A DNA stretch of 64,000 nucleotides from the IMG/VR virus record IMGVR_UViG_3300032397_000003, positions 32,001 through 96,000 of that record; one strand, given 5' to 3'. The notes under the pieces are model-generated. The model was not told where the DNA came from. It was given only the letters and a program-made list of their open reading frames with translations, and ran no database searches. The stretch comes from a virus. The translations under genes were made by a program, and so were the position numbers. Shown here one piece after another: positions 155 through 50,076 of this stretch (position 1 is its first letter; each line of letters starts with the position of its first letter).

Positions 155-436
155 TTATATCCTATTTATTAAGGCTAGGTGTAAACTATTTTTAAAATCT
201 TTTTTTACTATATCATTAGCCGATCCTTGACCGAAATTATCAATAACATCCAAAATATTATACTGCTTCAATGGGCCTAATTTAATAGTTCTAACTTTTT
301 TAGCCCACTTAGCATTATCCTTATCTGAGTTTATTTTCATAAACTCTTCAAATATATCATTTATTATTTTAGCATTAACATCTGATTTAGGATCCACTAC
401 TGTCATTACTTCTTTATATCTTTGATATCTTTTCAT
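155..436 (-). CDS. Hypothetical protein with MKRY-type N-terminal leader
   Basis: Starts MKRYQRYKE; overlaps stop of upstream gene. Confidence 0.7.
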   Translation of the reverse strand: MKRYQRYKEVMTVVDPKSDVNAKIINDIFEEFMKINSDKDNAKWAKKVRTIKLGPLKQYNILDVIDNFGQGSANDIVKKDFKNSLHLALINRI

Positions 437-1482
437 TATGCCCCCGTTGTAAAAGTTAAACTATAATCATCTTCTAAATTTATTCCATCACAGGATTTAG
501 CTGAAGTATTTATTAGTATATTATATTCAGTTAAAGATGTTAAATTACTTCTAGGATTTATAGTAAGAATTTTTGAAGCTATATCAAAACTCATATCTGC
601 ATCAATATAAGGAACCATATCTAAATTACTATAAACACTATCTTCGTTCATAGCAACATTAAAAGTTAAAACTATATTTGTGCTTCTTGCAACACCTGTA
701 GCATTATTTACAATATTAGAAGTAATAGTTGGTATAGAAGGGGAATGTGCAGTATCCAATAAAATATTCTGTTCTAGATTTTTTTGATTTTCTAGTTGTG
801 ATAAACGGAGTATTATGTCATCCACGTGATATACAATCTTAGGAATATTTATACCCCCAGTGGTATCTTGAGTGGGACTATTTTGCATATTAAGAACTAT
901 ATATGAGCACTTGACGTCAACAGTATGGGTAACCGGGTAGAGTTTTCCAACTGCAAACTGAGATTCTATATCGAAGGCTAGCTGTCCTCTTTCTGTTGTA
1001 TAATTTAAATCTATAACCATAGAACATAATACACCATTTAAAGTAACTGGCACATCTAGTCTTGTTAAACAAGATTCGTCTGCCGCAAATAGAGTCATTC
1101 CCCTCCAGAAGTCATATGGAGTAGTAAAGAAGGTTGTTAGTGGTATCGTAAGTAGCATAGGAATAAAGGAAACATAAGCACCAACTAATTCACTATAGAA
1201 ATTACCATTTACTTGATAGTGGCTACGATAATCGAGCGGGGCGTCGTCCGAAATATTGTACGCTGTGAACGGAAACTTTCCATTACTTGTTTTAAAGGCA
1301 TCTATTGATCTTCTGATAGAATTAGCATCATCAGAAGTATCGGCTAGAATTATTCTTTTTCTAGCCTCTACCGGGGTTTCATTAGGATATACCATTTGAG
1401 AAAAATATAATATAACCCTCTCTAATACAGCTTGAACTGCATAAGGATAGTTTACCGAAGAGGAATAATAACGTTCTGACAT
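436..1482 (-). CDS. Putative virion (neck/tail completion-like) protein with C-terminal Ig-like Big_5/SbsA domain
   Basis: C-terminal NNATGVARSTNIVLTFNVAMN...LTINP...L...TEY...FTT is the Big_5 pattern; the structural role is inferred from context. Confidence 0.6.
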   Translation of the reverse strand: MSERYYSSSVNYPYAVQAVLERVILYFSQMVYPNETPVEARKRIILADTSDDANSIRRSIDAFKTSNGKFPFTAYNISDDAPLDYRSHYQVNGNFYSELVGAYVSFIPMLLTIPLTTFFTTPYDFWRGMTLFAADESCLTRLDVPVTLNGVLCSMVIDLNYTTERGQLAFDIESQFAVGKLYPVTHTVDVKCSYIVLNMQNSPTQDTTGGINIPKIVYHVDDIILRLSQLENQKNLEQNILLDTAHSPSIPTITSNIVNNATGVARSTNIVLTFNVAMNEDSVYSNLDMVPYIDADMSFDIASKILTINPRSNLTSLTEYNILINTSAKSCDGINLEDDYSLTFTTGA

Positions 1483-2193
1483 TTATACTAACCTCAAATC
1501 ATATCTAACAGGATCATTTATATATTGTACAATATATTTCCTAAATTTTAAAAAAGCATTCCTATTATGCTTATTCATTTCATTTATATAAAAAGTAATA
1601 TGTAATGATTGACTTCTTGCAAAATTGCCTGATTTTAACATTTCCATAATATTATTATTACTATATCCTGAATATCTTAAACTTTCTATATACATATAAG
1701 CATAAGCCATAATCTCTTGTGGATTTTTCATATATTCAATATCTATATCATTATCTATTGATGAGCCTTCAAAATTATAAAAATTTATTTTATCTCCAGC
1801 TCTAACATAATATTGTCCACGATGAACTAATTCATGTGATAGTAGTATAATTAATTCTTTTTCAAATTGATTAAAAACATCAAGATTATCTTTAGATGTA
1901 TAAAAATAAAAATCATCTGTTAGATAGATAATTATATTATCTTTATTTATAACTCCTTCCACTACTCCTTTATTTACTTTCATTGAATCTATAATAACAA
2001 ACTGTATTTTATAGGTATAAAACTTTTCATTAAATAACTGAAGTGCATCACCTTTAAAAAAAATTAAAGTCCTTTTTAATTGCTTTAATTCATCTTTTAA
2101 AATATCTAAATATTTATCTACATGAACAACTGCTTCATTAAATCTTCCTAGTTGATGATAATAAGGATCAAATTTTCTTTTATACCTTTTCAT
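1483..2193 (-). CDS. HEXXH zincin-like protein with MKRYKR leader
   Basis: LSHELVH plus downstream NPQEIMAYA glutamate motif. Confidence 0.6.
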   Translation of the reverse strand: MKRYKRKFDPYYHQLGRFNEAVVHVDKYLDILKDELKQLKRTLIFFKGDALQLFNEKFYTYKIQFVIIDSMKVNKGVVEGVINKDNIIIYLTDDFYFYTSKDNLDVFNQFEKELIILLSHELVHRGQYYVRAGDKINFYNFEGSSIDNDIDIEYMKNPQEIMAYAYMYIESLRYSGYSNNNIMEMLKSGNFARSQSLHITFYINEMNKHNRNAFLKFRKYIVQYINDPVRYDLRLV

Positions 2194-2571
2194 TTATACT
2201 GCATCCTGTTGTTTTTGATTCTTCTCATTCTCGTCTTCGTCATCTAATCCAATTGTAACTGGTTTAGCTTTAGGACCATCTTCTGGTTTTTGTGAAGAGG
2301 CAAATCCCGTACTGAGGATATCTTCATTTATAAGCTCCTCATCAAGAAGTGAATCTAAGAATTCTTGAAAATTAGCCTCTTTACTTTCTATAAATTTTTC
2401 AGCACAAAGTTTATTGTTTTCACAAAGTATATCAAACATCATTTCTTTTATGAAATCTAAATTTGATTCTTGTCCTAGAAACTTTGCCTCTCTCTTACAA
2501 TCTAAATATGTTTTATTTATTAGGGAGGCTTTACATCCCCATTCATATAAACAATGTGCTAATAAATTCAT
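2194..2571 (-). CDS. Hypothetical protein with acidic tail
   Basis: ORF track; tightly packed operon. Confidence 0.6.
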   Translation of the reverse strand: MNLLAHCLYEWGCKASLINKTYLDCKREAKFLGQESNLDFIKEMMFDILCENNKLCAEKFIESKEANFQEFLDSLLDEELINEDILSTGFASSQKPEDGPKAKPVTIGLDDEDENEKNQKQQDAV

Positions 2572-2579
2572 GTTATCAC

Positions 2580-3068
2580 CTATCTTTTAAGGATATCGAA
2601 TAAACTTTTCCTTGTAGAATCCTGTTCAACCTTTATTTCATCTTGAATCACTTCATCTTGAATAACTTCTTTTTCAACTTCAGGTTCTTTGGTAGATTCT
2701 ACTCCTGATTGTTTTTCTAATATCTCTTTCACTAAAAAAGCATTACTTCTATTAGTTGTAATTATTGCATAATCTCTACATATCTCACATATCTCCACTC
2801 TACTCATAATAAATAATTGAGCTTTAGTATATATAGGCATATTATCTATATTAGGAACTGATTTATAAAGCACTTCATTAGAATCGTAATTCTTTCTTTC
2901 ATAATCAACTAATCCGGATTTATTAGCATCTGTTTTTATAAAAGGAACAAGCTTCTCTGCTACATTAGGATAGGATATCCAATCCTTTGTTAAATTTATA
3001 CCTGCTATCTGCATTGTATATTCTTTTACTGAATCTGTTAATCTATACTGGTGTACTATTCTAGCCAT
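2580..3068 (-). CDS. Hypothetical protein, first gene of the minus-strand operon
   Basis: AAGGAG RBS and TACTAAT motif (3096-3102) upstream. Confidence 0.65.
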   Translation of the reverse strand: MARIVHQYRLTDSVKEYTMQIAGINLTKDWISYPNVAEKLVPFIKTDANKSGLVDYERKNYDSNEVLYKSVPNIDNMPIYTKAQLFIMSRVEICEICRDYAIITTNRSNAFLVKEILEKQSGVESTKEPEVEKEVIQDEVIQDEIKVEQDSTRKSLFDILKR

Positions 3069-3123
3069 GTGATACTCCTTTACTTTTCATTTTTTATTAG
3101 TAAGAAAACTTTTAATTATTGTT

Positions 3124-4161
3124 TTATTGAATAAAACATTCTGTTATACTCCATACATCATGCCCTTCCTCATCATCTATATCAATAGAATCACCTTCAT
3201 TATACTTTAAAGGTATAGAATCTTTAAAATATAATATTAAGCCAGCCTCATGTTCTTTACATCTAATTAAATTTTTAATTCTTTGCTTTAAAATATTATC
3301 TACAAAAATAAATATTCTTCTATCATAATCTTCATCCCATTCTATAATAGTACCTTTATATACAGAATAACCAAATTTATATACAGTATCCTTAGTTCTA
3401 TCCAAATATATTTTATAAGAAATATTTTTATAATAAATTTGATTAGATTGATAAGGATTATTATTAACAATAATTAAGTAAGAATTTACATCATAATCCC
3501 AAATCCATTTAAAATCTTCTTTAGTGTTTTCCTTAGTTTTATACTTATCCCTAAGAAATACTATATAACTATATTGTTTATCTGATTTAACTTGATTAGT
3601 TAAAATATCATTTATATCATTTATTTTTGGTTCTTTAACTTCTTTTTTTATATCATTAATTATATCAAATCCTTTTGTAATAGTTTTATAATCCACTAAA
3701 CTATTTTTATATAATAAATTCTTTTTATCTACTTCACTTCTATTTATATCTATGGTGGGACAATTAGGAAAAAGAAAATATTCACTATCTTTATATGAGT
3801 AAACCTCTGTTATTTTCCAACTATCTTTTTGAACAGATATATATTGATCTACTGTATATTTAGAGGGTATATTATCTTTAAATAATATCCTTATTTCACC
3901 TTTATTTTGAAAAATACAATATACATTAAAATGTATGGAACTGCTTAAAGAATTTGAGCATGCTAGTAACCTAGTATCGTAATCTTTATCCCATATAACA
4001 ATAATATTTCTATATCTATTAAAAGAAAATCCATAAGGATAATTATCATCAGATAATACTTCTACCTTCTCTTTCTTATAAATAACATAATTATCTTGTA
4101 TTTGATCTTGAGATTTTTCCTTCCAATTTTTAACCAATTGGTTATATTTTTCAATATTCAT
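3124..4161 (-). CDS. Hypothetical protein with internal domain duplication
   Basis: WDKDYDTR...FKDNIPSKY...DSWKITE recurs as WDEDYDRR...FKDSIPLKY...DVWSITE. Confidence 0.7.
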   Translation of the reverse strand: MNIEKYNQLVKNWKEKSQDQIQDNYVIYKKEKVEVLSDDNYPYGFSFNRYRNIIVIWDKDYDTRLLACSNSLSSSIHFNVYCIFQNKGEIRILFKDNIPSKYTVDQYISVQKDSWKITEVYSYKDSEYFLFPNCPTIDINRSEVDKKNLLYKNSLVDYKTITKGFDIINDIKKEVKEPKINDINDILTNQVKSDKQYSYIVFLRDKYKTKENTKEDFKWIWDYDVNSYLIIVNNNPYQSNQIYYKNISYKIYLDRTKDTVYKFGYSVYKGTIIEWDEDYDRRIFIFVDNILKQRIKNLIRCKEHEAGLILYFKDSIPLKYNEGDSIDIDDEEGHDVWSITECFIQ

Positions 4162-4260
4162 TTTTCCTCTCCTTTTGTTATAGTTATTTTATCTCTTCCT
4201 ATTTGGAAAATTTTATTTTTTTTAAAACTGTAATTTTTATGGTATTTTTTAGTAATTACT

Positions 4261-6126
4261 TTACCCAACATCAGTCATATATACCTCATCTATCCGTAAT
4301 TCATCGATATAATCATAAATTCTATTTAAAAATATCTGATATAATAAGTAATTGTTTTTTGTTATAGTATTCTTAATTAAATTAAGTAAGGTATTTAATA
4401 TAAAATAAGATACTTTATTCATAGATACAAGAATAGTATTATTTATATTCATAGTAAGATAAAATAATCTACAAGAATTATTTTGAGGTAATACTGAACT
4501 ATATTTCCATCCTCTATCACAATATATAAATTGTTTAAATACACTACTATATTTAAGAATATTATTTATAATACCAAATACATCTCTTTCTTTTAATTCA
4601 GGGTAATGGTCTTTAAGTCTATCTGCATATTTAATTGAATATTGCATACCTTTTAAATATTTTAAAGATTTCCCTTCATAAACTTCTTTTGGATTTATAC
4701 AATTATAATACATACTTCCTAACATTTCAAGAAATATAATAGATATATCTTTTTTATTTCTATCTGATATTTTTAAACCACTCTTAGAAATTATAGTATT
4801 TAATATTTGATTGTTTAAAACAGTTTCTTTTATGTTATTTGGAATAAGATATATATTAGATATAAATGCTATTTCCTTATACTCATTAGAATATCCATTA
4901 GGTATTTGTCTACATGTATTATACATATCGGTAACTATTGATAGTAATTCCGAGTCACTCCAATTAGCTAAATCTCTAGATCCATTTTTACAAACTTTTA
5001 TAGCGTTGAAAATTTCAAAAATAGACCATCCACTAAATTTTCCTGCTGATATAATATCACACATACCTTCATGTCTATACTCTGCTGTTAAGTCTATAAT
5101 TTTAGATTCATTCTTTAAATGTAGAGTTCTATCATTTAAAAATTGATTGTAATCAGTTCTTCTAGCAGAACCTTTACTTTTTCTTTTATATAAAGAACTG
5201 GCTATATTTTTTTTACCACCCTCTTTAATTATTGAAAGGTTTATAATATTATTTATTTCGGGGGGTGATTCTAATTTTGGAATTGATATAGAAGTTCTAT
5301 TCCTTCTAGCATAATCCCTTGCTTCGGTGGGAGTTAAAATTTCACCTGTTTCAGATATAGTTTCATATTGATAGGAATGAGGAAATCTCATTCTTACTGG
5401 TAATTCAAACTTTGTATTATTTTCTTTATTAAAATTATTCAACCAAGATTTTTTTTCTTCCCATGTATATATAGAATCTAATTTTATATATATATGATGT
5501 CCTCCTTCCGGACACACTTCTTCAAGAACAGGTTTACAATTATAATTTTTTAAGTAGTTCTTTAACTTAGTTACTACCTCATCTGTTTTTACAATATTTC
5601 CATCATGACAATCTATATCTAATACAAGCATATTAGAATTTTCTTTAATAGAGGAGCCAACTGTATTAGAGGCTTGTTTTAATGTTTTAACATATTCAGG
5701 AGAGGCAATATTATTTTTAACTCTAGGATTTTTTGTTTCTAAAGGATAGACATGAGAAAGAATATGGTCTTTAATCTCACACATTTTTCTTACTCTAAAT
5801 GATTTCTTTAAATATATATCATAAACATTTGTTTCATACCATCCAGCAGTAGTAGTAATCCAATTAAAAATTTTTAGGGGTTTAGTGGTTAAAGGATTAT
5901 TTTCTGATCCTATTGCTTTAAGATTTACATAACTTAAGATATATTCTTTTTCTAAATCATAACCTAAAAATTCAAAATGATCATAAAGATCATTTATTTC
6001 TTTTTGTTTAAAATGTTTATTCTTTAGTTTCCTTTTAAATTCATTATCTTTTATTTTATTGGATAAAAATTGATTAGGTCTTTTTTCATTAGTTTCTAAT
6101 GTTAAAGTTGAAAAGTCTTTTATCAT
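4261..6126 (-). CDS. AEP-family primase-polymerase / Rep-like protein
   Basis: LVLDIDCH (motif I DxD), GGHHIYI (motif II), downstream RMRFP. Confidence 0.7.
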   Translation of the reverse strand: MIKDFSTLTLETNEKRPNQFLSNKIKDNEFKRKLKNKHFKQKEINDLYDHFEFLGYDLEKEYILSYVNLKAIGSENNPLTTKPLKIFNWITTTAGWYETNVYDIYLKKSFRVRKMCEIKDHILSHVYPLETKNPRVKNNIASPEYVKTLKQASNTVGSSIKENSNMLVLDIDCHDGNIVKTDEVVTKLKNYLKNYNCKPVLEEVCPEGGHHIYIKLDSIYTWEEKKSWLNNFNKENNTKFELPVRMRFPHSYQYETISETGEILTPTEARDYARRNRTSISIPKLESPPEINNIINLSIIKEGGKKNIASSLYKRKSKGSARRTDYNQFLNDRTLHLKNESKIIDLTAEYRHEGMCDIISAGKFSGWSIFEIFNAIKVCKNGSRDLANWSDSELLSIVTDMYNTCRQIPNGYSNEYKEIAFISNIYLIPNNIKETVLNNQILNTIISKSGLKISDRNKKDISIIFLEMLGSMYYNCINPKEVYEGKSLKYLKGMQYSIKYADRLKDHYPELKERDVFGIINNILKYSSVFKQFIYCDRGWKYSSVLPQNNSCRLFYLTMNINNTILVSMNKVSYFILNTLLNLIKNTITKNNYLLYQIFLNRIYDYIDELRIDEVYMTDVG

Positions 6127-6127
6127 A

Positions 6128-6472: not shown

Positions 6473-6474
6473 AA

Positions 6475-6673: not shown

Positions 6674-6716
6674 AGTATTGTTATTATTTATTAGTAAGAA
6701 AATTTTTAATAATATT

Positions 6717-6992: not shown

Positions 6993-7094
6993 ATAATATC
7001 CTTATTTATTAGTATAGACTATAAAAAGTGAAATGTATTTTTTATGTACATTTCACCTTATTTAATTATTATTTCATAACTTTTTTATAAAAAT

Positions 7095-17933: not shown

Positions 17934-18248
17934 ATGAAGAAATTTCAACAAGGGGATTTAATTCTAAAAGAGAGCAAAGTTTCTAAAAAAGAATATGGTA
18001 AAAAACTTAATCATTTGATATTACAACAATCAGATGTAAGTAATCATAAACATCAAATAACAAATGGAACCGCTATACTTTATTCTACACAAAGAGCAGA
18101 TGAATTTTATTTAGAGGTGACTTCAGAGAAAGCTGTATTAGCTCATGAAGAACATACCTCCGTAAACATCCCTAAAGGAAAATATTTTATTTATGGAGTA
18201 AGAGAATTTGATCCATTTGAAGATGTAATAAGAAGAGTAAGAGATTAA
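17934..18248 (+). CDS. Small His-rich partner protein (QGD...HxH...HEEH...REFDP)
   Basis: FQQGDLIL, NHKH, LAHEEH, IPKGKY, REFDPF. Confidence 0.7.
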   Translation: MKKFQQGDLILKESKVSKKEYGKKLNHLILQQSDVSNHKHQITNGTAILYSTQRADEFYLEVTSEKAVLAHEEHTSVNIPKGKYFIYGVREFDPFEDVIRRVRD

Positions 18249-18271
18249 AAATGTAATTAAGGAGAAATAAA

Positions 18272-19556
18272 ATGGAAAGATCATGGAATAATGAATTTAA
18301 AGAGATACAACAAAGTTATGAGTTTGGATATCAAAAAATTAAAGTAATAGAGGATATTAACTATATGGATTCTAATTATAGTGATATTACTTGGTTAGAA
18401 GGATGGGAAAGAAATTATGTTGAGGAGAAAGTACAAGAGTTATTAGAAGAGTATAAAAGATTTAATACTTATCCTAAAGTGTATTATAAAATATGGATGA
18501 GACCTATAGGTCTAGTATTTGTAAAAGATGTAGAATAAGGAGAAATACAAATGAATAGTTTACTTCAATCAATAGAAGCAGAAAATAGTTTTTCTAAATT
18601 AGATCATAAGATAGATGTATGGTTAAAAGATCATCCTTTATCATCTAAAATACAAGACAGTGTACAAATAGCAAAAGAAGATATTGTATCATTTAATAAA
18701 ATGTTTTATGAGAGGTTATTTATATGAATCTTGAAAGAAGAGAAAAATTCAAACAGATTAAACAGATTGATAGATTAGGTAGAACACTAAAGGGGGATGA
18801 ACTTCTTATTACTTTATCCAATGGTAAACAAATAAGAACTTTTGGTGATATTGAATGTTTAACTGTAGATAGATTTGGAGATGAAGAACCAATTAAAGCA
18901 AGTCTACTAACTACAGAATTAGCAATTAAGATAGAACAGTTTAGTAATCAATTATAGGAGAAGTAGATGAGTTCTATTTTTTATTTCACTAAGTTTCAAA
19001 AATTTAAATATATCATTAGATATAAATTATCTAAAAGATATAAATTAAAATGTGATTTAGCTCAAAAGTTATTAGATAACCAAATTAAATATTTAAAATC
19101 TATAGATAAAAATAGGGTAATATCTCCAAGTAATATTCTATCTCTTATTGATTTTTCTTATTCAAAAAATATATGGAAAGATATTATTCAAAATCCTAAA
19201 TCAGATGACTTATACTATATAAATATGGAGAAATATAAATGATAGTTCAAAACATAGACATAAAAGGTAATAATTATGAGAGTATGGATACCGTTCCAGA
19301 ACCACTATCCACTTATATATCTTGGATATATCCTGAAATTTATGATCCTATTGATAAATCATATATTGAATTATCTTTAATACATACTAGGGCAGCTGAC
19401 AGTATAAGAATAAATTATGACTCTACAAGAGATGGTTGGGTAATTAAACAAGCGTCTGTTTTTGAATTTAATTGTGATGATAAAGTTTGTGATCAAGATT
19501 GGAAAGAAGTTGCTTTTATAGAAGCATGGGCAAGGGAGACTAAAAAAGATGATTAA
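18272..19556 (+). CDS. Small hypothetical genes (18272-18538, 18724-18957, 18967-19242, 19239-19556)
   Basis: ORF track, RBSs. Confidence 0.6.
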
Positions 19557-26504: not shown

Positions 26505-26561
26505 TTTCAGGTGATTTCTTACTAATAATAAAATACCTATATACTAAGAGGAAATTATATA

Positions 26562-27998
26562 ATGGCACTATATGAATCAAAATTTATTAGAGTTGAAGAG
26601 TCATTTTTAAAAGCAGATATACTAAAAGCCATATATCTGGCTAATAAGGTTATAAGCAGGAGAATAGGAGTAAAGATTTATACAGGAAGATTACCCATTG
26701 ATTTTATTACTTCTAAAGGAAAATTTTCAGGGCTAATGTGTCTTATTATAGGAAAGAAAATGATCAGGTACAATTGGGCTATAAATGACACTTCTTGTAC
26801 TATTACTTCTATAGATTTCTGGTTGAAAGGTATGACAGCAAGACCTACTTATAATCTTGAAACAGAAAGCCTTAATATAATTAAGTTAATAGATACAATA
26901 TCCTCAGTATTACAAAATGATATACAACCAGAGTATTCAGTAATAACAGAATCTTATAAAGGAAAAGTTACTGAAGATTTTACTCCTAAGACGGGTGGAG
27001 GGAAAAGTAAGGCTATATCAGATGCTTTAAAACAATGGGCGATTGATAAAGATGTATCAGACGATAGGCTACAGAATACAAGAATATCATATTTATATAA
27101 AGATTTTCAATTTTGGTTTCAGGAAATGGCTGGACCAGAATTTGAGAATATGTCTGAAATGACTTTTAGAAATTATATAATGAATTTTCTAAAAGATAGA
27201 GGATTAAAAAATATCTATATTCGCAATTTGATTTTACGAACAGGTAATAAAGAGAAAATAGTAGTTACAGATAAAGCCTCTGAGATAGCTTATCAAGATA
27301 TATCACATTTAGCTATGAATGTAGATGATATGAAAGAATTTATGGCAGATTCTTTAAGGGCAGTTGCAAGAGGATTCAGAACATCATTAATCATAGCAGG
27401 TAAGGCAGGATTTGGGAAAAGCTCCTTAACTGAAAAAATTCTAAAAGAAGAAGGAATGAGAGTTAAATCAGTTCAACAGATAAGAAATATAAAAGTGCTC
27501 TATAATTTATTTGCACAACATGGTGGCCCAAAAGATGTTATTTTACTGGATGATACTCCTGATACCTTTGATAAGAAATTTAGCGGTTACTTATCAGCAG
27601 CACTTGATGATAAACCTAAAAGAATAATTTCCTTTCCTAGTGAAATGGGGAAAGATATGCAGGATTTAAAAAAGTTTCAACCAGAACTTCTATATCAGGG
27701 TAAAATTGTAATCTTGACAAATAAAACCAAAAAAGAAATACCTACTTATTTAAAAAGTAGAAGTATTACTATAGAAGTTCAGGCTGACGTAAGTGCGATG
27801 AGCGATGACATCCGGAAAAATCTCCTAAATGTTTTACCCCAGGTTCCTATGGAGTCTAAATTGGAAGTTTTAGACTTTATTGAAAAATTAGGTAAACATA
27901 TTTCTTCCATAGATTATAGAACTTTTATGTTAGCCGTAGTTTTCAAATCAGCTGGATCACCCGATTGGAAAAAAAGAGTGTATGCGTTGCTTAAATAG
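26562..27998 (+). CDS. Protein with C-terminal AAA-type P-loop ATPase
   Basis: GKAGFGKS, ILLDD, ILTN, LKSRS. Confidence 0.75.
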   Translation: MALYESKFIRVEESFLKADILKAIYLANKVISRRIGVKIYTGRLPIDFITSKGKFSGLMCLIIGKKMIRYNWAINDTSCTITSIDFWLKGMTARPTYNLETESLNIIKLIDTISSVLQNDIQPEYSVITESYKGKVTEDFTPKTGGGKSKAISDALKQWAIDKDVSDDRLQNTRISYLYKDFQFWFQEMAGPEFENMSEMTFRNYIMNFLKDRGLKNIYIRNLILRTGNKEKIVVTDKASEIAYQDISHLAMNVDDMKEFMADSLRAVARGFRTSLIIAGKAGFGKSSLTEKILKEEGMRVKSVQQIRNIKVLYNLFAQHGGPKDVILLDDTPDTFDKKFSGYLSAALDDKPKRIISFPSEMGKDMQDLKKFQPELLYQGKIVILTNKTKKEIPTYLKSRSITIEVQADVSAMSDDIRKNLLNVLPQVPMESKLEVLDFIEKLGKHISSIDYRTFMLAVVFKSAGSPDWKKRVYALLK

Positions 27999-29549: not shown

Positions 29550-29983
29550 GTTTGGATGATAAGTTCTTAGGGAAGATTATTTCCTATAATCCAGACAGTG
29601 ATACACTTACTATTAAATTAAATTTCACTACGGAAGACAAAAAAGAAACTTTATTTGATTTATTTAAAAGTAATAAGATATTTTCTTTTGTTATAAGGAA
29701 AGCGTACAAAGAAACGAAGAGCACTGCACAAATTCGTACTTACTTTATGCTTCTTGGTCAAATACTTGACAAACTTGATATACCAAAAGATAAAGATGTT
29801 ATAGCTGAATTTGATAAACAGTTACTTACTACTTTATTTCCTTGTAGATTTATGGAAATTTTGGGGCAGAGCATACCCATTCCCCCGAGCAAAAGCGAGA
29901 TGTCAAAAGAAGATTTTTCTTTGCTAATTCAGAATATACTTGATACCTACAGTGCTTTAGATATTAAGATAGATAGTTATTAA
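29546..29983 (+). CDS. NinB-like protein
   Basis: KSTAQ...YF and SKSEMSKEDFSLLIQ motifs. Confidence 0.45.
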   Translation: MSLDDKFLGKIISYNPDSDTLTIKLNFTTEDKKETLFDLFKSNKIFSFVIRKAYKETKSTAQIRTYFMLLGQILDKLDIPKDKDVIAEFDKQLLTTLFPCRFMEILGQSIPIPPSKSEMSKEDFSLLIQNILDTYSALDIKIDSY

Positions 29984-30020
29984 GCTTATACTAATATAAA
30001 AAATAATTAGGAGAAGTTTA

Positions 30021-30626
30021 ATGATAAAATCAAGAATGGAAGAAATAATTGATCCAGAAGCTGTTACAACTGATGATAAAGATGAGATAGTAATTAAGCT
30101 TCCTAGACCTATTATAAATAATGATTTAATTATATCAATAGATGAAGATATTGAAGAACCCAGCAACTACAGAAAAGTATTTGAAGCTTTAAGATCAGCA
30201 AAAGAGGGTGATATAGCTTATTTAAATATAAATTCATTTGGTGGTTATATATGTACTATGGCACAATTTTTTCATTTTCTTTTAAACACCAAAGCACATA
30301 CAGTTGCAAATGTTTTTACTGCCTATTCTGCAGCAAGTGTGATTGCTTTATGTTGTGATGAGATAAATATATCACAGTTTGGATCGATAATGGTACACAG
30401 CATGAGCACAGGAACTTATGGAAAAATTTCCGACGTGGAAGGTTATTCTAAATTTGCTTTGAAACAAGATAAGGACATTGCGGATACTGTTTATCAAGGA
30501 TTCCTTACCAAAGCAGAAATTATAGAAACAAATAAAGGGAAAGAATTTTGGATGAATAAAAAAGAATGTGATTCAAGATTAAAAAATTATAAAACAGTAA
30601 AACAGAGATTTTTAAATAAAAAATAA
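30021..30626 (+). CDS. ClpP-like serine protease
   Basis: INSFGG, YSAAS, IMVH, EFWM. Confidence 0.8.
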   Translation: MIKSRMEEIIDPEAVTTDDKDEIVIKLPRPIINNDLIISIDEDIEEPSNYRKVFEALRSAKEGDIAYLNINSFGGYICTMAQFFHFLLNTKAHTVANVFTAYSAASVIALCCDEINISQFGSIMVHSMSTGTYGKISDVEGYSKFALKQDKDIADTVYQGFLTKAEIIETNKGKEFWMNKKECDSRLKNYKTVKQRFLNKK

Positions 30627-35263: not shown

Positions 35264-35368
35264 ATAATTTATATAATTTTTTCTCAATTTGATATAAATA
35301 ATTTTTAATTATTGACATTTTTTCTATATATTATACTTGTAAGATAAATTTAAATAAGGATATCAAAT

Positions 35369-35725
35369 ATGAATATATCAGTAACTGGTTCACGTTCTAT
35401 CGAAAATTATAACTGGTTTAAATTAGAATTAGAATCTATCATAAAAGAATATAATGAAATTACTTTTATATCTGGGGGAGCGAGAGGTATTGATTCTTTT
35501 ATTAAAAAATATTGCATAGATAATAATTTTAAAATAAATGAAATTCTACCTGATTGGGATAAATTTGGTAAATCCGCTGGGATTATTAGAAACAAAAAAA
35601 TTATAGAAGATTCTGATTTTAATATAATTTTTTGGGATGGAAAAAGTAAAGGCTCAAAGTTTAATATTGATTATTGTATTAAAAATAATAAGAAACACAA
35701 GGTAATTATATATGAAAAGATATAA
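35369..35725 (+). CDS. SLOG-family (YspA/DUF2493-like) protein
   Basis: VTGSR, ISGGARGID, PDW..GKSAG..RN, FWDGKSKGS. Confidence 0.85.
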   Translation: MNISVTGSRSIENYNWFKLELESIIKEYNEITFISGGARGIDSFIKKYCIDNNFKINEILPDWDKFGKSAGIIRNKKIIEDSDFNIIFWDGKSKGSKFNIDYCIKNNKKHKVIIYEKI

Positions 35726-36431
35726 AAGAAATTTAGATGAAGGTTTATCTATAATAGATGATAAACTAGTTTTTGATTATTCTAATGATTCTGGACTTAG
35801 AGTAGCTTTAGGAACTAAACAGTTTAAATTTAAACCCTATAAAACTAAAGTGGATGATTATTCTATAATATCTTTATATCAAGTAACATCAGAGGATAAA
35901 GTTATTTTAAGAACATTAAAAAATGAAACATCTATTCAAGTAGATAAAAAAGACTTAGATTATTTTGCAAATCGTAGTGCTTTATATGCTTTTCAACAAA
36001 TCCCAGAAGAAATTGATATAATATTATTTAGTGAAAACAGTTACTATTTATTTGATAGTTTTATTAAAAAGTTAGAATCTAGGTTCTCTTCAAAAGTTAT
36101 TGCTATATCTCAAAGTATTTATAAAACAACTACAGATAATTTAAAAATTAAAGACGATGCGCCCATTAAGTATTTAAAGGATTTACAAATACTTTTAACT
36201 TCATTAAAAAAGAAAGATACTATTAAATTGAGAAATGATATTCCTTTAAAATTTAGAAAGTATTTTACAGGATTTATTTCTATAAGAAATGGTGTTCAAT
36301 TTGAAAATAAAAATATTCTAATTGTAGATGATATATTAACTACTGGAAGTACGTTTTTAGAATTATTTGAAGTTTTAAAAATAAGAGGTGCATCTAATAT
36401 TTATGGATTAACTTTATTTAAATTTAGGTAA
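35712..36431 (+). CDS. Type I phosphoribosyltransferase-domain protein with MKRYKR leader
   Basis: PRPP loop ILIVDDILTTGST. Confidence 0.8.
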   Translation: MKRYKRNLDEGLSIIDDKLVFDYSNDSGLRVALGTKQFKFKPYKTKVDDYSIISLYQVTSEDKVILRTLKNETSIQVDKKDLDYFANRSALYAFQQIPEEIDIILFSENSYYLFDSFIKKLESRFSSKVIAISQSIYKTTTDNLKIKDDAPIKYLKDLQILLTSLKKKDTIKLRNDIPLKFRKYFTGFISIRNGVQFENKNILIVDDILTTGSTFLELFEVLKIRGASNIYGLTLFKFR

Positions 36432-41898: not shown

Positions 41899-41907
41899 GA
41901 TTATACA

Positions 41908-44520: not shown

Positions 44521-44777
44521 ATGATTTTTTAAAAAGAAAACCACTGCATAATAGAAATGAAGAATGGAAAGAACACTGGCAAGACATGCCTGAATTTATA
44601 TGTAATGATTTAGGTCCACATTCTCAAATTATAATTTCATTTAAAACTAAAGAGGATAGAAAAGCTTTTTCTAAACTTATAAATCAACCAATATCAGAGA
44701 GAACAAAATCTTTATGGTATCCTAAAGAAGACATTGATTTTGTAGAACATTTGAGGTATGTCGATGATAAAAAATAA
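44517..44777 (+). CDS. Small WxDMPEF protein coupled to the glycosyltransferase
   Basis: HWQDMPEF...TKSLWYP; overlaps both neighbours. Confidence 0.65.
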   Translation: MNDFLKRKPLHNRNEEWKEHWQDMPEFICNDLGPHSQIIISFKTKEDRKAFSKLINQPISERTKSLWYPKEDIDFVEHLRYVDDKK

Positions 44778-45651: not shown

Positions 45652-45759
45652 TTATCATTTTTACTAATACATAAAAATAATTTAATTTTAATGATTATTT
45701 CTATATATTATAGTTAAAGTTATGGATCAAATAGATATTAAACTAGTTGGAGATAAATT

Positions 45760-45984
45760 TTGAAAAAGAAGGAACCAAAGTCTTCAAGAAATACTAAGAA
45801 TCAAAAGTTATTATCACCAAAAGAATCTAAAGAACAGGTTCAAATTGAAAAAGAGGAAATTATTCAAGTTGAACTTAAAAGAAGTTATAATTGTAAATGT
45901 GGTTGTAAAGTAATTCTTGAGGGAGAAACATATAAAAGAAAAGTGAAAGATGGTTTTGAACTTTGTAGTGGCTGTTCTAAATAA
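45760..45984 (+). CDS. Small Cys-rich hypothetical protein
   Basis: Class-A promoter at 45699; CKCGC...CSGC. Confidence 0.5.
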   Translation: MKKKEPKSSRNTKNQKLLSPKESKEQVQIEKEEIIQVELKRSYNCKCGCKVILEGETYKRKVKDGFELCSGCSK

Positions 45985-46173
45985 TTTTTAAAAAATAATA
46001 AAAAGTTGTTTACATTTTTTTACATACATTGCCAGAAAGATACACCCTCTTTAGAGGTGTGTATGAATGGCAAAAATAATGAATTTTTTTGATAAAAATA
46101 AAAAAAGTAGTGTACTTTTCTATAATATTGTAATATATTATATATGATAATACTAATAAACAAGAGGTTTAAC

Positions 46174-46344
46174 ATGGAATATGAAAAGATAATATTTAAT
46201 TTTCCAAAGCAATATAAAAGAAAACTTGAAAAAATAGTTTCTATGGGGAATGTAGAAAATGAAAAAAGCACAACTTTAAGTGGGTTAATTTCTGAAACTT
46301 TAATTAGGGAATTTGATTTAGAAAATGAAAAAACATCATTATAA
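46174..46344 (+). CDS. Small ribbon-helix-helix-like protein inside the IS (ORF track start 46144)
   Basis: GAGG RBS before ATG 46174; KIIFNFP...LSGLISETL strand-helix-helix pattern. Confidence 0.5.
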   Translation: MEYEKIIFNFPKQYKRKLEKIVSMGNVENEKSTTLSGLISETLIREFDLENEKTSL

Positions 46345-46723
46345 ATCTGATTGTAATTATCATCTTATTATATGTCCTAAATATAGACATAAGGTATTGC
46401 ATGATGAAGTCAAGAATTTTTTAAAGAATAAATTTAAAGAAATTTGTATTAATTATGATTATGAATTATTAGATTTTTCAATAGAAATAGACCATATTCA
46501 CTTTGCATTAAAATTACAACCAACGTATTCTATTGGTTCTGTTGTTAGAAATTTAAAATCAATAACTGGATATTATTTGTTTAAGGAATTTCCAGAATTA
46601 AGAAAGAAATATTTTTGGAATAGCGGATTTTGGACTCATGGTTATTTTGTTTCGACTGTCGGTCGAGTTTCAAAAGAAAAAATTATGGAATACATTAAGT
46701 CACAAGAAAATTATGATAACTAA
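46325..46723 (+). CDS. tnpA: Y1 HUH transposase TnpA
   Basis: YHLIICPKYR, DHIH, LKSIT, FWTHGYFVSTVG, YIKSQ. Confidence 0.95.
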   Translation: MKKHHYKSDCNYHLIICPKYRHKVLHDEVKNFLKNKFKEICINYDYELLDFSIEIDHIHFALKLQPTYSIGSVVRNLKSITGYYLFKEFPELRKKYFWNSGFWTHGYFVSTVGRVSKEKIMEYIKSQENYDN

Positions 46724-47957
46724 AAATCAACAAATAAAATATTCTCTTTCCGCTACAGGAGAAAAAAGAAAAACTCAAACTTGTAAAGTTTATGAATTAA
46801 AGCTTTGTGAAAACAAACTTAATAAAATACAAATTGATTTTTTGCATAGGATTTTCCTTGAGGCAAAATGGATATATAATGATATTTTAAGCTTTAATGA
46901 TTTAAAAAACTATGATTGCAAAAAGAAAGAATTAGAAATCCTAAATAAAGAGAAAGAAAAGGAAATAAGAGAATTAAAAGTTTTAGGTAGTCAAATTAAA
47001 CAAGAACTATTACAAAGAACCTGGGGCTCTATTAAATCTCTTTCTACTAAAAAGAAAAAGGGCAAAACAAAGCAAGTAGGTAGACTTAAATTTAAAAGTC
47101 AAATAAATTCAATTCCTTTAAAACAATATGGAATTACATATAAGTTTCAGAAAGGTAATTTAAAAATACAAAACTGTAAATCATTGTTTCAAATTAAAGG
47201 ATTAAAACAAATTCCTGAGAATGCTGAATTTGCAAATGCTAATTTAATTAGAAAACCTTCAGGCTATTATCTTAAAGTAACTTGCTTTCTTCCAATTGAA
47301 AGTAAAAATATAAGTAAAGAAATAGTTGGTATTGATTTTGGAATTAAAGATGATTTGGTTTTAAGCAATGGAATTAAATTTCAAACTAAATTTCCAACAT
47401 CTTTTCAAATTAAAAGAGAGCAAAGAAAATTATCTAAAAAGAAAAAAGGTAGTCATAATTATTGGAAACAAAAAAATAAAGTTGCATTAGCTTATGAAAA
47501 ACAGAATAATAAAAAACAAGATACAAAAAATAAAATCATAAGTTATTTAAAAAATAATTATTCTCATATAGCAATTCAAAATGAAAATATAAAAGGATGG
47601 CACGCAGGATTATTTGGAAAACAAGTACAACAATCAATTTTAGGTGGTATAATTTCGGAATTGAAGAAACTTCCGCAGACACATATTGTTGATAGATTTT
47701 TTCCAAGTACAAAACTTTGTCCTGAATGTGGTCAATTAAATATTTTAACATTAGCAGATAGAATGTACAATTGTTCTTGTGGTTATTCTCAGGATAGAGA
47801 TATTCATAGTGCAAAAAATATTCTTTTAGAAACAATACCTATGGAATATAGGAATTTTAAGCCTGTGGAGTTTAATACCTCTGCGATAGATTATTTAAAG
47901 TCTTTCGTAAGTGTGAACTATGAAGCAGGAAGATACAACTCTTTAGAGTTGTGTTAG
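46713..47957 (+). CDS. tnpB: TnpB RNA-guided nuclease (ORF track start 46638)
   Basis: GIDFG RuvC-I, IAIQNENI RuvC-II, PSTKLCPECG...CSCG, DRDIHSAKNI RuvC-III. Confidence 0.92.
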   Translation: MITKNQQIKYSLSATGEKRKTQTCKVYELKLCENKLNKIQIDFLHRIFLEAKWIYNDILSFNDLKNYDCKKKELEILNKEKEKEIRELKVLGSQIKQELLQRTWGSIKSLSTKKKKGKTKQVGRLKFKSQINSIPLKQYGITYKFQKGNLKIQNCKSLFQIKGLKQIPENAEFANANLIRKPSGYYLKVTCFLPIESKNISKEIVGIDFGIKDDLVLSNGIKFQTKFPTSFQIKREQRKLSKKKKGSHNYWKQKNKVALAYEKQNNKKQDTKNKIISYLKNNYSHIAIQNENIKGWHAGLFGKQVQQSILGGIISELKKLPQTHIVDRFFPSTKLCPECGQLNILTLADRMYNCSCGYSQDRDIHSAKNILLETIPMEYRNFKPVEFNTSAIDYLKSFVSVNYEAGRYNSLELC

Positions 47958-47994
47958 TTCACTAATAGAAATAATATAAAATTGAGGTAAATAA

Positions 47995-48551
47995 ATGAAA
48001 AGATATGCACCATTTAAGTTTAAAGAAGCAAATAAAAAAGATTTAAATGAACTTATAGGAGAACTTAAAGCTCAATATGGATCATTCAAGGATGTAAAGA
48101 AAGATAAAGACTTTAAAAAACTTTCAGATGGGGATCAAGAGTATGTACTTGATGAATTAAAAGCAGAAGGGACTTTTAAGGACTAATAATGATGGTAGAA
48201 AGATATAAACAATTTTTTGAAGATTCTAAGTATATAGATTTCTCTAAAGATAGGGATTATATAGAATTATTAGGTAATCTTAAAGGAAAAGATTATTCTA
48301 TCACTATGCAATGGAGTGGTCCAAAACAAGGGTTTAATGTTGAATGTTCTATAGTTACATCTCAAGGAAGTGAATTTATATACGGTAAAAATTCTAATAT
48401 ACATGGTGGGAGTGTAGAGCAAACTTTAACACCCATCTTTATAAATATATTTAAAATATCCGTTCCTAAAATAGAAAATGGTGGATCTGGATTAGATGTT
48501 AATCATATGATTGAAACATTGATTAAAAAATATAAATTTAAAGTGAAATAA
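47995..48551 (+). CDS. Two small proteins with RY-type leaders (47995-48186 MKRYAPFKFKEA; 48189-48551 MMVERYKQFFED)
   Basis: ORF track; downstream of the IS-interrupted TACTAAT motif. Confidence 0.65.
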
Positions 48552-48626
48552 TTTTTAATTCTCATCTAATTTTCTATATATTATAAAGGTAGATAAGAAA
48601 AAATAATTTAAACTAGGGGTTCTATA

Positions 48627-49427
48627 GTGAACATAATAAAATTAACAAAAGAGGAGATTAAAAAGTCAGCTCCAGCAGTATATGCAACTCAACCAAAGAA
48701 GTCTATGACAGATAGATATTCTTTTGTATCAACAGACAAAATAATTACAGGATTTAATCAAGCAGGTTGGGAAGTTACAAAAGCTTTTCAAAGTAAAACT
48801 AAGAAAGACGATATAGCAGAAAGAAAGCATGTAGTAAGATTATCTAATCCTGATTTTCAACCAATGATGAAAGAGGTAGGCTCACTTACACCAGAGATAA
48901 TTTTAATCAATTCCCACAACGGTACCTCGGCAGTGCGCATAGAACTGGGATTATTTAGACTCGTTTGCGGTAACGGATTAGTGATTGCCAACAGCAGATT
49001 TGCACAAGTAAAAAGAAGACACTTTGGAATAGATCAAGATGAAATATTCCAAGTAATATATGATGCTACAAATGAGTTTCAAGACGTTTGGGGAAAAATA
49101 GACGAGTATAAGTCTATTAAACTTACAAATGGACAAAGACTTGATTTTGCTTCTAAAGTAATAGAGGAAAATTGGGGAACAAGCTCAGTAATAACTCCAG
49201 ATGCTTTATTACTACCAAGGAGAACAGAAGATAAAAATGATGATCTTTTCTCTGTAATGAACGTTGTTCAGGAGAATGTTATCAAAGGAGGAGCTAACTA
49301 TTTACACCCTCATAGAAATACATTAAGAAGAACAAAAGCAATTAAAAATGCTGATAGGGATATAAAAGTAAATGCTCTTCTGTGGCAAATGATAGAATCT
49401 TTTAGATTATCAAAAAAATTCAGATAA
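48627..49427 (+). CDS. DUF932/DUF945-family protein
   Basis: NSHNGTS...GLFRLVCGNG, RRTED...LF...NVVQENVIKGG. Confidence 0.85.
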   Translation: MNIIKLTKEEIKKSAPAVYATQPKKSMTDRYSFVSTDKIITGFNQAGWEVTKAFQSKTKKDDIAERKHVVRLSNPDFQPMMKEVGSLTPEIILINSHNGTSAVRIELGLFRLVCGNGLVIANSRFAQVKRRHFGIDQDEIFQVIYDATNEFQDVWGKIDEYKSIKLTNGQRLDFASKVIEENWGTSSVITPDALLLPRRTEDKNDDLFSVMNVVQENVIKGGANYLHPHRNTLRRTKAIKNADRDIKVNALLWQMIESFRLSKKFR

Positions 49428-49497
49428 CAGTTTAATTATCGATAAATTATCTATATATTATATGTATAGATAATTTGATATTTCAAGGAGATTTAAA

Positions 49498-50076
49498 ATG
49501 GTAAAAAGGTATAAAAGAATAGAATCACAATTTATGGAAACTTTTGTTAGAGATTTATGGAAGTCTTTAATAAATTTGTCAAATATCTTAAAAAAACTAG
49601 ATATAAATTTTACAGTGATTGGGGGAGCTGCTAGAAATCAATATGGAGCAATAAAAATCACGGAGGATATAGATATACTTGTTGATATAAAGGATAAGGA
49701 TAAGATGTTACATCTTCCTATTGGTTTTATAAGAGAACTTTCTAATGGAAGAGGTAAAGTATATACTTTACATGATCCTAAAACTAAGATAGAAGTAATA
49801 TATACTGGGGAGGAAGCTGGAAGAGAGGGTAGTGATGTACCATATATAAATCCTAAAAAGATTTCAAATAATATTAAAAATATTCCCTTTTTAACTTTAG
49901 AAAACTTAATAAGATATAAACTTGCCTCTGGTCTTTATGGTAAAGGTAGGCTAAAGGATTTTGCTGATATCCAGTTTCTGATCGAAATGAATGATCTTGA
50001 AAGAAATTATGCAGATTCTTTTAGAAAGGATTTAAAAAATAAATATATTGAAATATGGATTGACACAATGGAATAG
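49498..50076 (+). CDS. Pol-beta-superfamily nucleotidyltransferase (DUF6036/AbiEii-like) with MVKRYKR leader
   Basis: VIGGAA...TEDIDIL...LENLIRYKL...RLKDFAD. Confidence 0.75.
   Translation: MVKRYKRIESQFMETFVRDLWKSLINLSNILKKLDINFTVIGGAARNQYGAIKITEDIDILVDIKDKDKMLHLPIGFIRELSNGRGKVYTLHDPKTKIEVIYTGEEAGREGSDVPYINPKKISNNIKNIPFLTLENLIRYKLASGLYGKGRLKDFADIQFLIEMNDLERNYADSFRKDLKNKYIEIWIDTME

Follow-up and report, generated by a model that had tools for sequence, protein, structure and literature searches.

A basic N-terminal leader shared by otherwise unrelated proteins of an uncultured phage: a candidate T4-type capsid-targeting propeptide

Tagged genes in the window and their promoters

The window, a stretch of 64,000 nucleotides, is positions 32001-96000 of the 155,573-bp genome of an uncultured phage (IMGVR_UViG_3300032397_000003). 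Six of its dispersed open reading frames encode proteins that begin alike, all of them present with the starts that the original prediction gave them, and a GGAG-like ribosome site precedes most of them by 6-10 nt. Positions below are those of the window unless given as genome coordinates, and a slash marks a predicted cut. On the minus strand, 155-436 encodes 93 aa beginning MKRYQRYKE/V (leader codons 410-436), with the late-type promoter motif TACTAATA 75 nt upstream at 511-518 on the same strand; its paralogue at genome coordinates 138286-138573 (E 2e-9) is tagged too. A further minus-strand copy of the late motif, at 3095-3102, heads an operon with this gene and 1483-2193, also on the minus strand, whose 236-aa product is a gluzincin-like HExxH protein (HELVH at residue 120). 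Its start, MKRYKRKFD-P...RFNE/A, is the one leader with Asp in place of the expected Glu, and a second site follows 11 residues on. The tagged paralogue at genome coordinates 29644-30354 (E 1e-10) keeps HETIH, and the orthologue in one related locus, L029, starts MRKYRRIFE/AL..LNE/A and so offers two candidate cut sites.

On the plus strand, the late motif at 26520-26527 stands ahead of 26562-27998, a probable divergent tagged gene of 478 aa whose weaker leader reads MALYESKFIRVEE followed by S. Support for this candidate has grown, since its orthologue in another related locus, L030 (7290-8777), starts MKHYKK..SIFKE and lies within a tagged array upstream of the protease gene there; a variant similar to its leader, MKLYESAFSR, occurs on the orthologue of another tagged gene. 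The plus-strand gene 35712-36431 (239 aa, MKRYKRNLDE/G) carries a phosphoribosyltransferase (PRTase) domain, matched by PF00156 at 27.2 bits, just above the cut-off of 26.3. Upstream of it and of 35369-35725 is the class-A (early/middle-type) promoter motif TCTATATATTATA (35323-35335, plus strand). The leader is kept in close homologues of the PRTase (MKRYSRQSE, MRKYKRQIE); a homologue at 47% identity starts MKTFDDYLE and one at 44% is without the first ~25 residues.

The remaining three are also on the plus strand. The 63-aa product of 47995-48186 begins MKRYAPFKFKE/A, and 27 nt upstream of the gene, at 47960-47967 on the same strand, is CACTAATA, a one-base variant of the late motif; the orthologue in the related locus L031 (MKKYQRYEEKE) belongs to the array that precedes the protease gene of that locus. 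In the 120-aa product of 48189-48551, M-MVERYKQFFE/D, the leader is offset by one or two residues. The third, 49498-50076 (192 aa, MVKRYKRIE/SQFME/T), has a class-A motif upstream at 49450-49462 (plus strand) and encodes a weakly AbiEii-like nucleotidyltransferase (PF08843, E 0.002, below cut-off); KKYQKFDFKSSFME is kept in its L031 orthologue. The caveat originally attached to 35712 and 49498, that class-A TCTATATATTATA rather than late TACTAATA precedes them (for 35712 by way of 35369), is correct. The cargo labels all hold, if weakly for the PRTase, at 27.2 bits, and for the nucleotidyltransferase below its cut-off.

A peptide signal on unrelated proteins

M-x-R-Y opens 20 of the 241 proteins called on the full genome, where the RY frequency of the proteome predicts 0.38 (P = 5e-28), and Phi-x-E lies within residues 5-14 in 19 of these 20 but in 47 of the 213 untagged ones (P = 7e-11). 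The commonest four N-terminal tetrapeptides are MKRY, MERY, MKKY and MNRY. The full leader, M-x-R-Y-x-x-Phi-x-E over ~10 residues, is on ~28 otherwise unrelated proteins, so that the six first listed were rightly named but too few; 1000 shuffles of residues 2-20 gave 1.94 +/- 1.35 (maximum 8) against the 28, and internal Met sites showed the pattern in 4 of 823 cases. In 11 related loci, 107 of the 388 ORFs that surround the protease gene carry it, with Glu at Tyr+6 in 51 and Tyr+5 in 22, and the motif search proposed for the whole genome and its relatives thus found strong enrichment. The arrays of the relatives are larger than those of this phage (consensus MKRYKS[IL][FL]KE), and the same leader arrays recur in further metagenome contigs. 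These relatives are all uncultured; no cultured relative of the phage was found.

Might the shared start be a signal in nucleic acid, a translation enhancer or the boundary of a recombination cassette that shuffles genes, instead of a peptide signal? The leader codons are A-rich (AAA AGA TAT AAA) and array gene content is indeed shuffled among relatives. However, the Arg codons (AGA/AGG/CGC) and Tyr codons (TAT/TAC) of the leader vary as they do genome-wide, residue 2 can be K, E, N or S, the distance of the Phi-x-E half from Tyr is variable, and orthologues keep both ends of the peptide motif through substitutions and through indels in between. Because its codons vary synonymously, the leader acts at the peptide level, and a nucleic-acid signal is exceedingly improbable.

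Tandem arrays are typical of duplication, and three paralogous pairs are still detectable among the 28 proteins (3 of 378 tagged pairs are alike beyond the leader), as would fit a single very old paralogous family whose bodies diverged and whose N-terminus is the best-conserved remnant. Such a descent is nonetheless very unlikely. The tagged proteins range from 58 to 683 aa; their bodies carry unrelated Pfam domains (PRTase, the DUF2204 nucleotidyltransferase, DUF4160 and DUF5661); and of the tagged pairs in seven related loci, as many as 171 in a single locus, none was similar once the first 14 residues were removed. For one tagged nucleotidyltransferase, phage-type homologues (217-224 aa) have leader variants, homologues of 150-196 aa start at the catalytic core without a leader, and bacterial MAGs hold relatives of one short form. 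The expectation that cellular homologues lack the leader is borne out in this case, and these leaderless bacterial homologues of the core argue that the fold existed before the leader was attached to it. Met just after the predicted cut (4 of 27 cases, two of the four being paralogues, versus a background of 1.9%; P = 0.002) likewise suggests that leaders were grafted ahead of existing starts.

A T4-type head module beside the tagged arrays

[quoted passage not shown] The CTS reads MKTYQEFIAE; for targeting its important residues are 4 and 7, for processing 8 and 10. The consensus layout of the present clade, with Tyr4, hydrophobic residues at 7-8 and Glu10, is the same, and in both phages the tag is N-terminal, ~10 residues long and on otherwise unrelated proteins.

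The phage also has a candidate for the cutting enzyme. In a 683-aa protein (genome coordinates 152440-154491), a serine protease of the gp21 type is joined to a coiled-coil and to a scaffold tract that is extremely acidic. This protein has no direct Pfam match, and the family call rests on profile comparison and homologues: hhalign pairs residues 1-200 with T4 gp21 across 170 columns (probability 95%, E 3e-8), PF03420 is matched by 8 of 61 homologues with no other family recurring, and the ESM Atlas returns the same Peptidase_S77 (gp21) family. His97 and Ser148 do not vary among homologues, and Asp177 hardly does. Judged by its sequence, then, this is a prohead protease of the T4 gp21 family (Peptidase_S77), whose members cut after Glu. 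Its LLIE18-21 is invariant and aligns with the LLIE of T4 gp21, a stretch (LIE-9) that a review names as a likely autocleavage site. The portal matches PF07230, the T4-type portal, above cut-off; the best PDB matches of the capsid protein model are P1, phage S6 and T4 gp23, its N-terminal region aligns with the gp23 propeptide, and [LM]-x-E77 is invariant across 14 capsid orthologues.

Many tagged genes are grouped in one array that immediately precedes the protease gene, and since the genome has a terminal repeat of 127 bp, the tagged genes of its left and right ends make a single array leading into the protease-scaffold and capsid genes, which the tagged late-operon arrays adjoin. The late motif is also found ahead of the genes for sheath, tube, baseplate, portal, capsid and terminase. 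It is the nearest upstream promoter of 16 tagged genes, class A being nearest for 6; the untagged genes divide 95 late to 104 class A (P = 0.04). The six behind the early/middle-type motif, 35712 and 49498 included, count against a capsid-targeting reading. They would fit a leader addressed to some partner outside the capsid, as would a distant relative, L038, whose different shared N-terminus is without a Glu site. That partner could be a RiPP-like modifying enzyme, a chaperone, or a host protease for which the leader acts as an N-degron that times degradation. We consider such a partner improbable. The protease-scaffold and capsid genes are the only ones consistently beside the arrays, orthologues of the dispersed class-A-driven genes sit inside head-proximal arrays of relatives, the leader closes with the motif that one expects for the gp21 family, and its length and key positions match the T4 CTS.

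A probable clade-specific version of the T4 tag

We favour, at a probability of roughly 0.65, the reading that the leader is a lineage-specific capsid-targeting propeptide of T4 type, this clade's version of the T4 CTS. That it is a capsid address tag, as originally proposed, gains support from the enrichment, the gp21-family protease, the arrays and the CTS-like layout; the qualification 'analogous but different' fares less well, because the head module is T4-type and the tag is thus probably a relative of the CTS. The leader combines Tyr4 and a hydrophobic or aromatic position 7-8 with basic positions 2, 3, 5 and 6. While the prohead is being assembled, this N-terminal stretch of ~10 residues would dock the tagged proteins onto a scaffolding core formed by the 683-aa protein. 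After shell closure the protease would cut behind the Glu of Phi-x-E and so remove the leader; the same enzyme would also trim the capsid protein and degrade the scaffold. The mature cargo, ~28 proteins, would remain in the head and exit with the DNA at infection.

The tagged proteins might instead be accessories of the prohead core or scaffold, their leaders being core propeptides, that are cut up and expelled at maturation, as are T4 gp67, gp68 and gp22, and not kept in the head for injection. T4 head-protein propeptides (T4 record) likewise have 6-10 residues and end in Phi-x-E (gp67 MEGLIE, gp68 MLLIPE, gp22 MLKEQLIAE), genes 67 and 68 lie directly upstream of gene 21 as the arrays here lie upstream of the protease gene, and many tagged proteins are small (58-170 aa). 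Yet the T4 propeptides are without the stereotyped M-x-R-Y start, and most of the proteins bearing them are essential head parts and not a variable set. Array content here differs among relatives whose capsid proteins are 70-85% identical, unlike that of essential core parts; a 261-aa family (genome coordinates 17951-18736) is the only tagged one conserved across nearly all relatives; and several tagged proteins have enzyme domains, the ~28 candidates including two HExxH proteins, two nucleotidyltransferases and one PRTase. An accessory role followed by expulsion is therefore unlikely.

Beyond the S77 protease and the T4-type portal and capsid protein, the capsid-targeting reading shares with T4 a cargo set that varies between related phages. 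There are differences. The T4 CTS is slightly acidic, whereas this leader is strongly basic (K2, R3, K5, R/S6, K9). Three residues before the leader Glu there is often Phe, Tyr or Lys, where T4 sites have Leu/Ile. Long arrays of tagged genes stand directly upstream of the protease gene, and protease and scaffold are one fused protein, both unlike T4. T4 internal proteins are strongly basic, whereas the cargo proposed here, with predicted enzymes among it, is not clearly so: in its mature form its median pI is 8.3 versus 5.7 for other proteins, not a significant excess (P = 0.12). The residue three before Glu, the one Asp-for-Glu leader and this charge count against the CTS reading, as do 28 predicted kinds of cargo, far above the number known for T4, whose genome has four tagged proteins against ~28 here.

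Other phages provide looser parallels. In phiKZ, 201phi2-1 and SPN3US, propeptides of inner-head and ejection proteins are cut after Glu by gp21-like proteases, and prohead targeting by them has been inferred. Many head-internal proteins of these giant phages are processed, as proposed here, by a gp21 homologue at a short motif ending in Glu; their propeptides are mostly >100 residues with no common short tag, whereas the present one has ~10 residues, nearly identical across cargo. The first 30 residues of P1 DarB suffice to send the protein or a reporter into the capsid, again by an N-terminal signal, and in structural comparison the capsid protein of this phage matches that of P1 best. The P1 Dar proteins have no common consensus, unlike the leader here, and to our knowledge neither a leader family nor cleavage after Glu has been described for the DarB signal.

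We infer scaffold docking, cleavage at Glu, retention in the virion and ejection. Proteins that bear the tag are probably packaged and injected with the DNA, as a set of unusual size, and this cargo might, conjecturally, serve in host takeover or anti-defence.

A shared leader on otherwise unrelated proteins

All six open reading frames originally predicted to share an N-terminal leader are present, with starts as described: 155-436 and 1483-2193, both on the minus strand, 35712-36431 (a phosphoribosyltransferase), 47995-48186, 48189-48551 and 49498-50076 (AbiEii-like); coordinates are those of the window unless marked 'genome'. The window covers bases 32001-96000 of a complete viral record of 155,573 bp and 28% G+C, for which a simple gene call gives 241 proteins. 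M-x-R-Y opens 20 of these, where the rate of RY dipeptides in the rest of the proteome would predict 0.38 (P = 5e-28), and hydrophobic-x-Glu lies at residues 5-14 in 19 of the 20 compared with 47 of 213 untagged proteins (P = 7e-11). The whole-leader pattern, M-x-R-Y-x-x-Phi-x-E with Phi hydrophobic or aromatic, is found at the start of 28 proteins; when residues 2-20 are shuffled 1000 times it turns up in 1.9 +/- 1.4 (at most 8). This enrichment over shuffled N-termini bears out the original prediction, and the pattern is enriched in relatives too. At internal methionines it occurs at 4 of 823 sites, and M-x-R-Y is internal to proteins only twice, one of the two being clearly a true start. 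Given the genome-wide counts and the shuffles, the existence of the tag is established, as real, non-chance and extending far beyond the six cases first listed. Mis-calling of starts was considered and rejected, ribosome sites being present.

The tyrosine occupies position 4 in 23 of the 28 leaders and is displaced by 1-4 residues in the others. K, E, N or S stands at residue 2, and 21 leaders have F, Y, L or I at residue 7. With the (L/I)-x-E of the protease's cut motif broadened so that Phi takes in F and Y besides L, I, V and M, Phi-x-E falls within residues 5-14 in 27 of the 28, the spacing from Tyr to Glu being 5 to 10 residues; one leader has Asp at the first cut-motif site. The codons used are AGA, AGG or CGC for Arg and TAT or TAC for Tyr, in proportions that are roughly genome-wide. 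The motif acts at the peptide level, and with synonymous codons varying in this way a signal in the nucleic acid itself, a possibility that was considered and rejected, is scarcely credible.

Beyond the leader the bodies are unrelated, all-against-all BLAST of the 28 yielding three paralogous pairs and nothing else. Lengths range from 58 to 683 residues (median 144 aa) and domain matches differ from protein to protein: a DUF2204 nucleotidyltransferase, DUF5661, a DUF4160 pair, a weak match for the AbiEii-like nucleotidyltransferase and one just above the Pfam cut-off for the phosphoribosyltransferase. Derivation of the whole set from one diverged paralogous family was rejected, there being just the 3 pairs in this genome and, in relatives, no two tagged bodies of one locus that resemble each other when residues 1-14 are left out; with unrelated domains and leaderless cellular homologues in addition, such an origin is highly improbable. 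The T4 internal proteins IPI-III are small and highly basic; here the median pI of tagged proteins is 8.3 versus 5.7 for other proteins, a difference short of significance (P = 0.12), and several tagged proteins are acidic.

Homologues of a tagged nucleotidyltransferase show the leader to be an add-on. Among the 37 found, those of phage type (217-224 aa) have a variant of the leader and, after it, a conserved helical extension, and those of 150-196 aa start at the catalytic core; relatives of one short form are in bacterial MAGs (Bacteroidota, Elusimicrobia and one unclassified bacterium). Absence of the leader from cellular homologues, which the original prediction had put up for checking in the phosphoribosyltransferase and the nucleotidyltransferase, was borne out for a nucleotidyltransferase, the short forms with kin in bacterial MAGs being without it, and both this absence and the modularity of the tag are established. 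One homologue of the phosphoribosyltransferase starts MKTFDDYLE, and its contig is absent from IMG/VR. Met directly follows the predicted cut in 4 of 27 tagged proteins, two of the four being paralogues, against a background of 1.9% (P = 0.002), and in relatives the excess is not significant. The leader would seem to have been placed before a start that already existed. In the DUF4160-like pair (genome 141569-141910 and 145392-145715, within L012, a locus of this genome) the leader runs directly into Met-Ala-Asn (…LFE/MAN… and …FFE/MAN…, the slash marking the junction) and the same junction is kept in relatives, as if here too the leader had been added before the original start codon.

Two further tagged families merit description. 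The 236-aa paralogues at 1483-2193 (minus strand) and genome 29644-30354 (plus strand) keep HExxH, as HELVH and HETIH, with a conserved EIM[AS]YA downstream, and look like metalloproteases of gluzincin type; they have orthologues within the arrays of two loci in relatives (L029 and L031). A 416-aa protein (genome 136804-138054; L012:1231-2481, minus strand) has C-terminal repeats (…LTSLKNSP..VGDDF.C..NP.LKSLEGLP…); its matches are megaphage records that carry no annotation and a hypothetical protein from a Vibrio phage.

A T4-type head module with a fused protease-scaffold protein

Standard family scans gave the head genes no name, and other routes were therefore needed. Pfam and PHROGs returned nothing for the 683-, 691-, 416- and 390-aa head candidates, with no direct Pfam match for the 683-aa protein itself, and for the capsid protein only an unnamed PHROG; whole-genome HMM scans with PF03420, PF07068 and PF04586 found nothing, and nothing above chance came from PDB sequence searches with four head candidates or with a protease profile built on five sequences. 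Neither the window nor the 683-aa protein had a match in cultured phages by megablast and tblastn, and for the capsid protein there was one weak match, the 'major head protein' of a Pseudomonas phage.

The 683-aa protein (genome 152440-154491) consists of an N-terminal domain of ~200 residues, a coiled-coil and then an acidic tract reaching 80% Asp plus Glu over 60 residues, and a profile search places it in a family of 830 cluster representatives. Across 61 diverse homologues there is no variation at His97 or Ser148, and Asp177 is kept in at least 90%; the three align with the LNH, GVSS and DAV segments of the T4 prohead protease gp21, in which its catalytic His, Ser and Asp lie. Peptidase_S77 (PF03420) is matched by 8 of the 61 homologues, no other family recurring, and their profile aligns with T4 gp21 by hhalign with a probability of 95% (E 3e-8, 170 columns); the ESM Atlas, by features and structure, points to the same family. 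AlphaFold modelling of the protease domain from five sequences gave a pLDDT of 38, and the homology rests on profile comparison, by which the phage encodes a gp21-family prohead protease, a family assignment we regard as established. Residues 18-21 read LLIE, invariant in close orthologues, and line up with the initial LLIE of gp21; according to a review, this stretch of gp21 (LIE-9) is probably an autocleavage site.

The remainder of the module is in keeping. A 694-aa protein (genome 24562-26646) matches the T4 portal family PF07230 at 24.6 bits, over the cut-off, and a terminase-like Walker A motif can be read by eye in a 691-aa protein (genome 139147-141222). The capsid protein of 486 aa (genome 149907-151367; L012:14334-15794, minus strand) was modelled with a pLDDT of 73, the best matches being the capsid of P1 (E 9e-22), phage S6 and T4 gp23 (E 6e-11), and the helical first 75 residues of the phage protein give a weak alignment to the propeptide of gp23 (hhalign probability 57%). 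An [LM]-x-Glu77 and a Pro90-Glu91, both invariant in 14 orthologues, lie in a low-confidence linker of the model, and E77 and E91 are candidate maturation cut sites like Glu65 of T4 gp23. With a portal of gp20 type and a capsid protein of gp23 type, the head module is T4-type.

Promoters, arrays and relatives

The motif TACTAATA is late-type by the genes it precedes, which encode sheath, tube, baseplate, portal, capsid and terminase; TCTATATATTATA, the early/middle-type class A motif, stands upstream of genes for replication and nucleotide metabolism. For tagged genes the nearest upstream motif is late in 16 cases and class A in 6, versus 95 and 104 for untagged genes (P = 0.04, with five right-end genes left out). 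Those 5 further tagged genes at the right end are downstream of the left-end late promoter via the terminal overlap, since a 127-bp terminal repeat in the record makes the two genome ends contiguous in practice. Left-end and right-end tagged genes thereby form one minus-strand array of ~10 genes that runs straight into the genes for the protease-scaffold and capsid proteins. A caveat attached to the original prediction, that the genes at 35712 and 49498 follow class A promoters, is correct. Orthologues of 47995, 49498, the divergent 26562-27998 and the nucleotidyltransferase beside the portal gene are inside head-proximal arrays in relatives.

Checked in the sequence, a variant late motif, CACTAATA, is 27 nt upstream of tagged 47995, at the point where an IS605/TnpB-like element (46020-47990; 439-aa ORF at 46638-47957) ends. 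Between the tagged arrays the late minus-strand region includes a 2394-aa ORF (genome 8109-15293, in L007, another locus of this genome).

Close relatives, whose capsid proteins are 70-85% identical, also carry the leader, on small genes that vary from contig to contig and directly precede the protease-scaffold gene, with 5-18 instances of the start pattern per contig against 0-2 in a reversed control. At 31-39% identity of the protease there are 10-kb arrays in which nearly every gene starts MKRYKS[ILV][FL]KE, 18 and 20 such genes being present in two loci. For the locus search an alignment of 10 sequences was used, that of 61 being too diverse. Over 11 non-redundant loci 107 of 388 ORFs have the leader, the clade consensus being M-K-R-Y-K-S-[IL]-[FL]-K-E, with I/L at 7 and F/L at 8; the Glu is at Tyr+6 in 51 ORFs and at Tyr+5 in 22, and mostly S, D, E, A, N or G follows. 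Orthologues keep both ends of the leader despite substitutions and indels. Further metagenome contigs from several sample types have the same association of leader and head genes, an exact DNA pattern search for MKRYKSxxKE disclosed no contigs beyond those already found, and in three more distant loci (38-46% G+C) the leader is absent. Genomic linkage and conservation in the clade are thus established. A tag for some other partner, be it a modifying enzyme, a chaperone or a degron, is quite improbable with head genes as the only consistent neighbors.

A tagged 261-aa family with a weak SWIM zinc-finger signal (genome 17951-18736, in L007, minus strand) is present in almost every relative, leader-poor ones included; as all other tagged genes come and go, it may be a core component of the head rather than variable cargo. 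A distant low-GC relative (L038:245-6641; IMGVR_UViG_3300023278_002686) has, in place of the leader, the start MK[RKS]R[LKT]TF[VA]SNSSSSSF[VI]: it opens seven small proteins of 92-155 aa that are encoded upstream of the protease-scaffold and capsid genes, have nothing else in common by BLAST and lack a Glu cut site. This is a second kind of shared start.

Likeness to T4 capsid targeting and a possible address code

The T4 capsid targeting sequence, MKTYQEFIAE, is removed by a single gp21 cut. In the mutagenesis of Mullaney and Black (1996), as summarized in a review, targeting depends mainly on residues 4 and 7 and processing on residues 8 and 10, Asp at position 10 blocking cutting with targeting kept. 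The clade consensus is of equal length and shares Tyr4, hydrophobic residues at 7-8 and Glu10, so that the T4 targeting positions, Tyr4 and Phe7, have counterparts in the clade leader; the likeness is one of sequence only. By the T4 record its head proteins too have short N-terminal propeptides ending hydrophobic-x-Glu (gp24 MAKINELLRE, Alt MELITELFDE, gp22 MLKEQLIAE, gp67 MEGLIE and gp68 MLLIPE), and genes 67 and 68 lie just upstream of gene 21, a placement similar to that of the arrays here. The principle of targeting sequence plus gp21 is textbook knowledge for T4, and leaders of this sort on variable internal proteins are known in its close relatives. No paper mentioning an MKRYK leader was found in the literature searched. 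What is new is a basic leader of its own kind, in a T4-type clade that is distant and uncultured, on ~28 proteins per genome and in arrays of ~20 in relatives, together with enzyme cargo and the fused protease-scaffold protein.

The mechanism we think most likely is as in T4: tagged proteins would be docked by their leader on the core of the scaffold as the prohead assembles, the gp21-type protease would next cut behind the Glu, and the mature cargo would remain in the head until it leaves with the DNA. A possible binding site for the basic leader is the acidic scaffold tract, whose occurrence follows the presence of arrays only as a weak trend across about 12 loci. A bolder reading, an extension of the injection tag originally predicted and one to which we would give a probability of roughly 0.4, is that a ten-residue address code marks ~12% of this phage's genes and, in relatives, more than one in four of those next to the head module as capsid cargo. 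Some 30 injected proteins, including HExxH proteases, nucleotidyltransferases and a phosphoribosyltransferase, would be loaded by the basic leader on the poly-acidic tract of the protease-scaffold protein and cut after the Glu, and the injected arms-race proteome of the clade would be readable from sequence. It is conceivable instead that the tagged proteins are processed parts of the core, expelled rather than delivered; this is unlikely, the content of arrays varying between close relatives and several tagged proteins having enzyme domains.

If the address code works as the tag does in T4, all the proteins that the clade injects could be listed from sequence alone and, acting before any phage gene expression, they would be the first to consider for counter-defence and host takeover. 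These candidates are many, variable among close relatives and mostly of unknown function, a focused set for anti-defence discovery. Foreign proteins could be loaded into capsids in a simple way with the compact leader and a single protease-scaffold protein, and the capsid-targeting principle of T4 would prove to be old, widespread in distant T4-type phages and scalable about tenfold.
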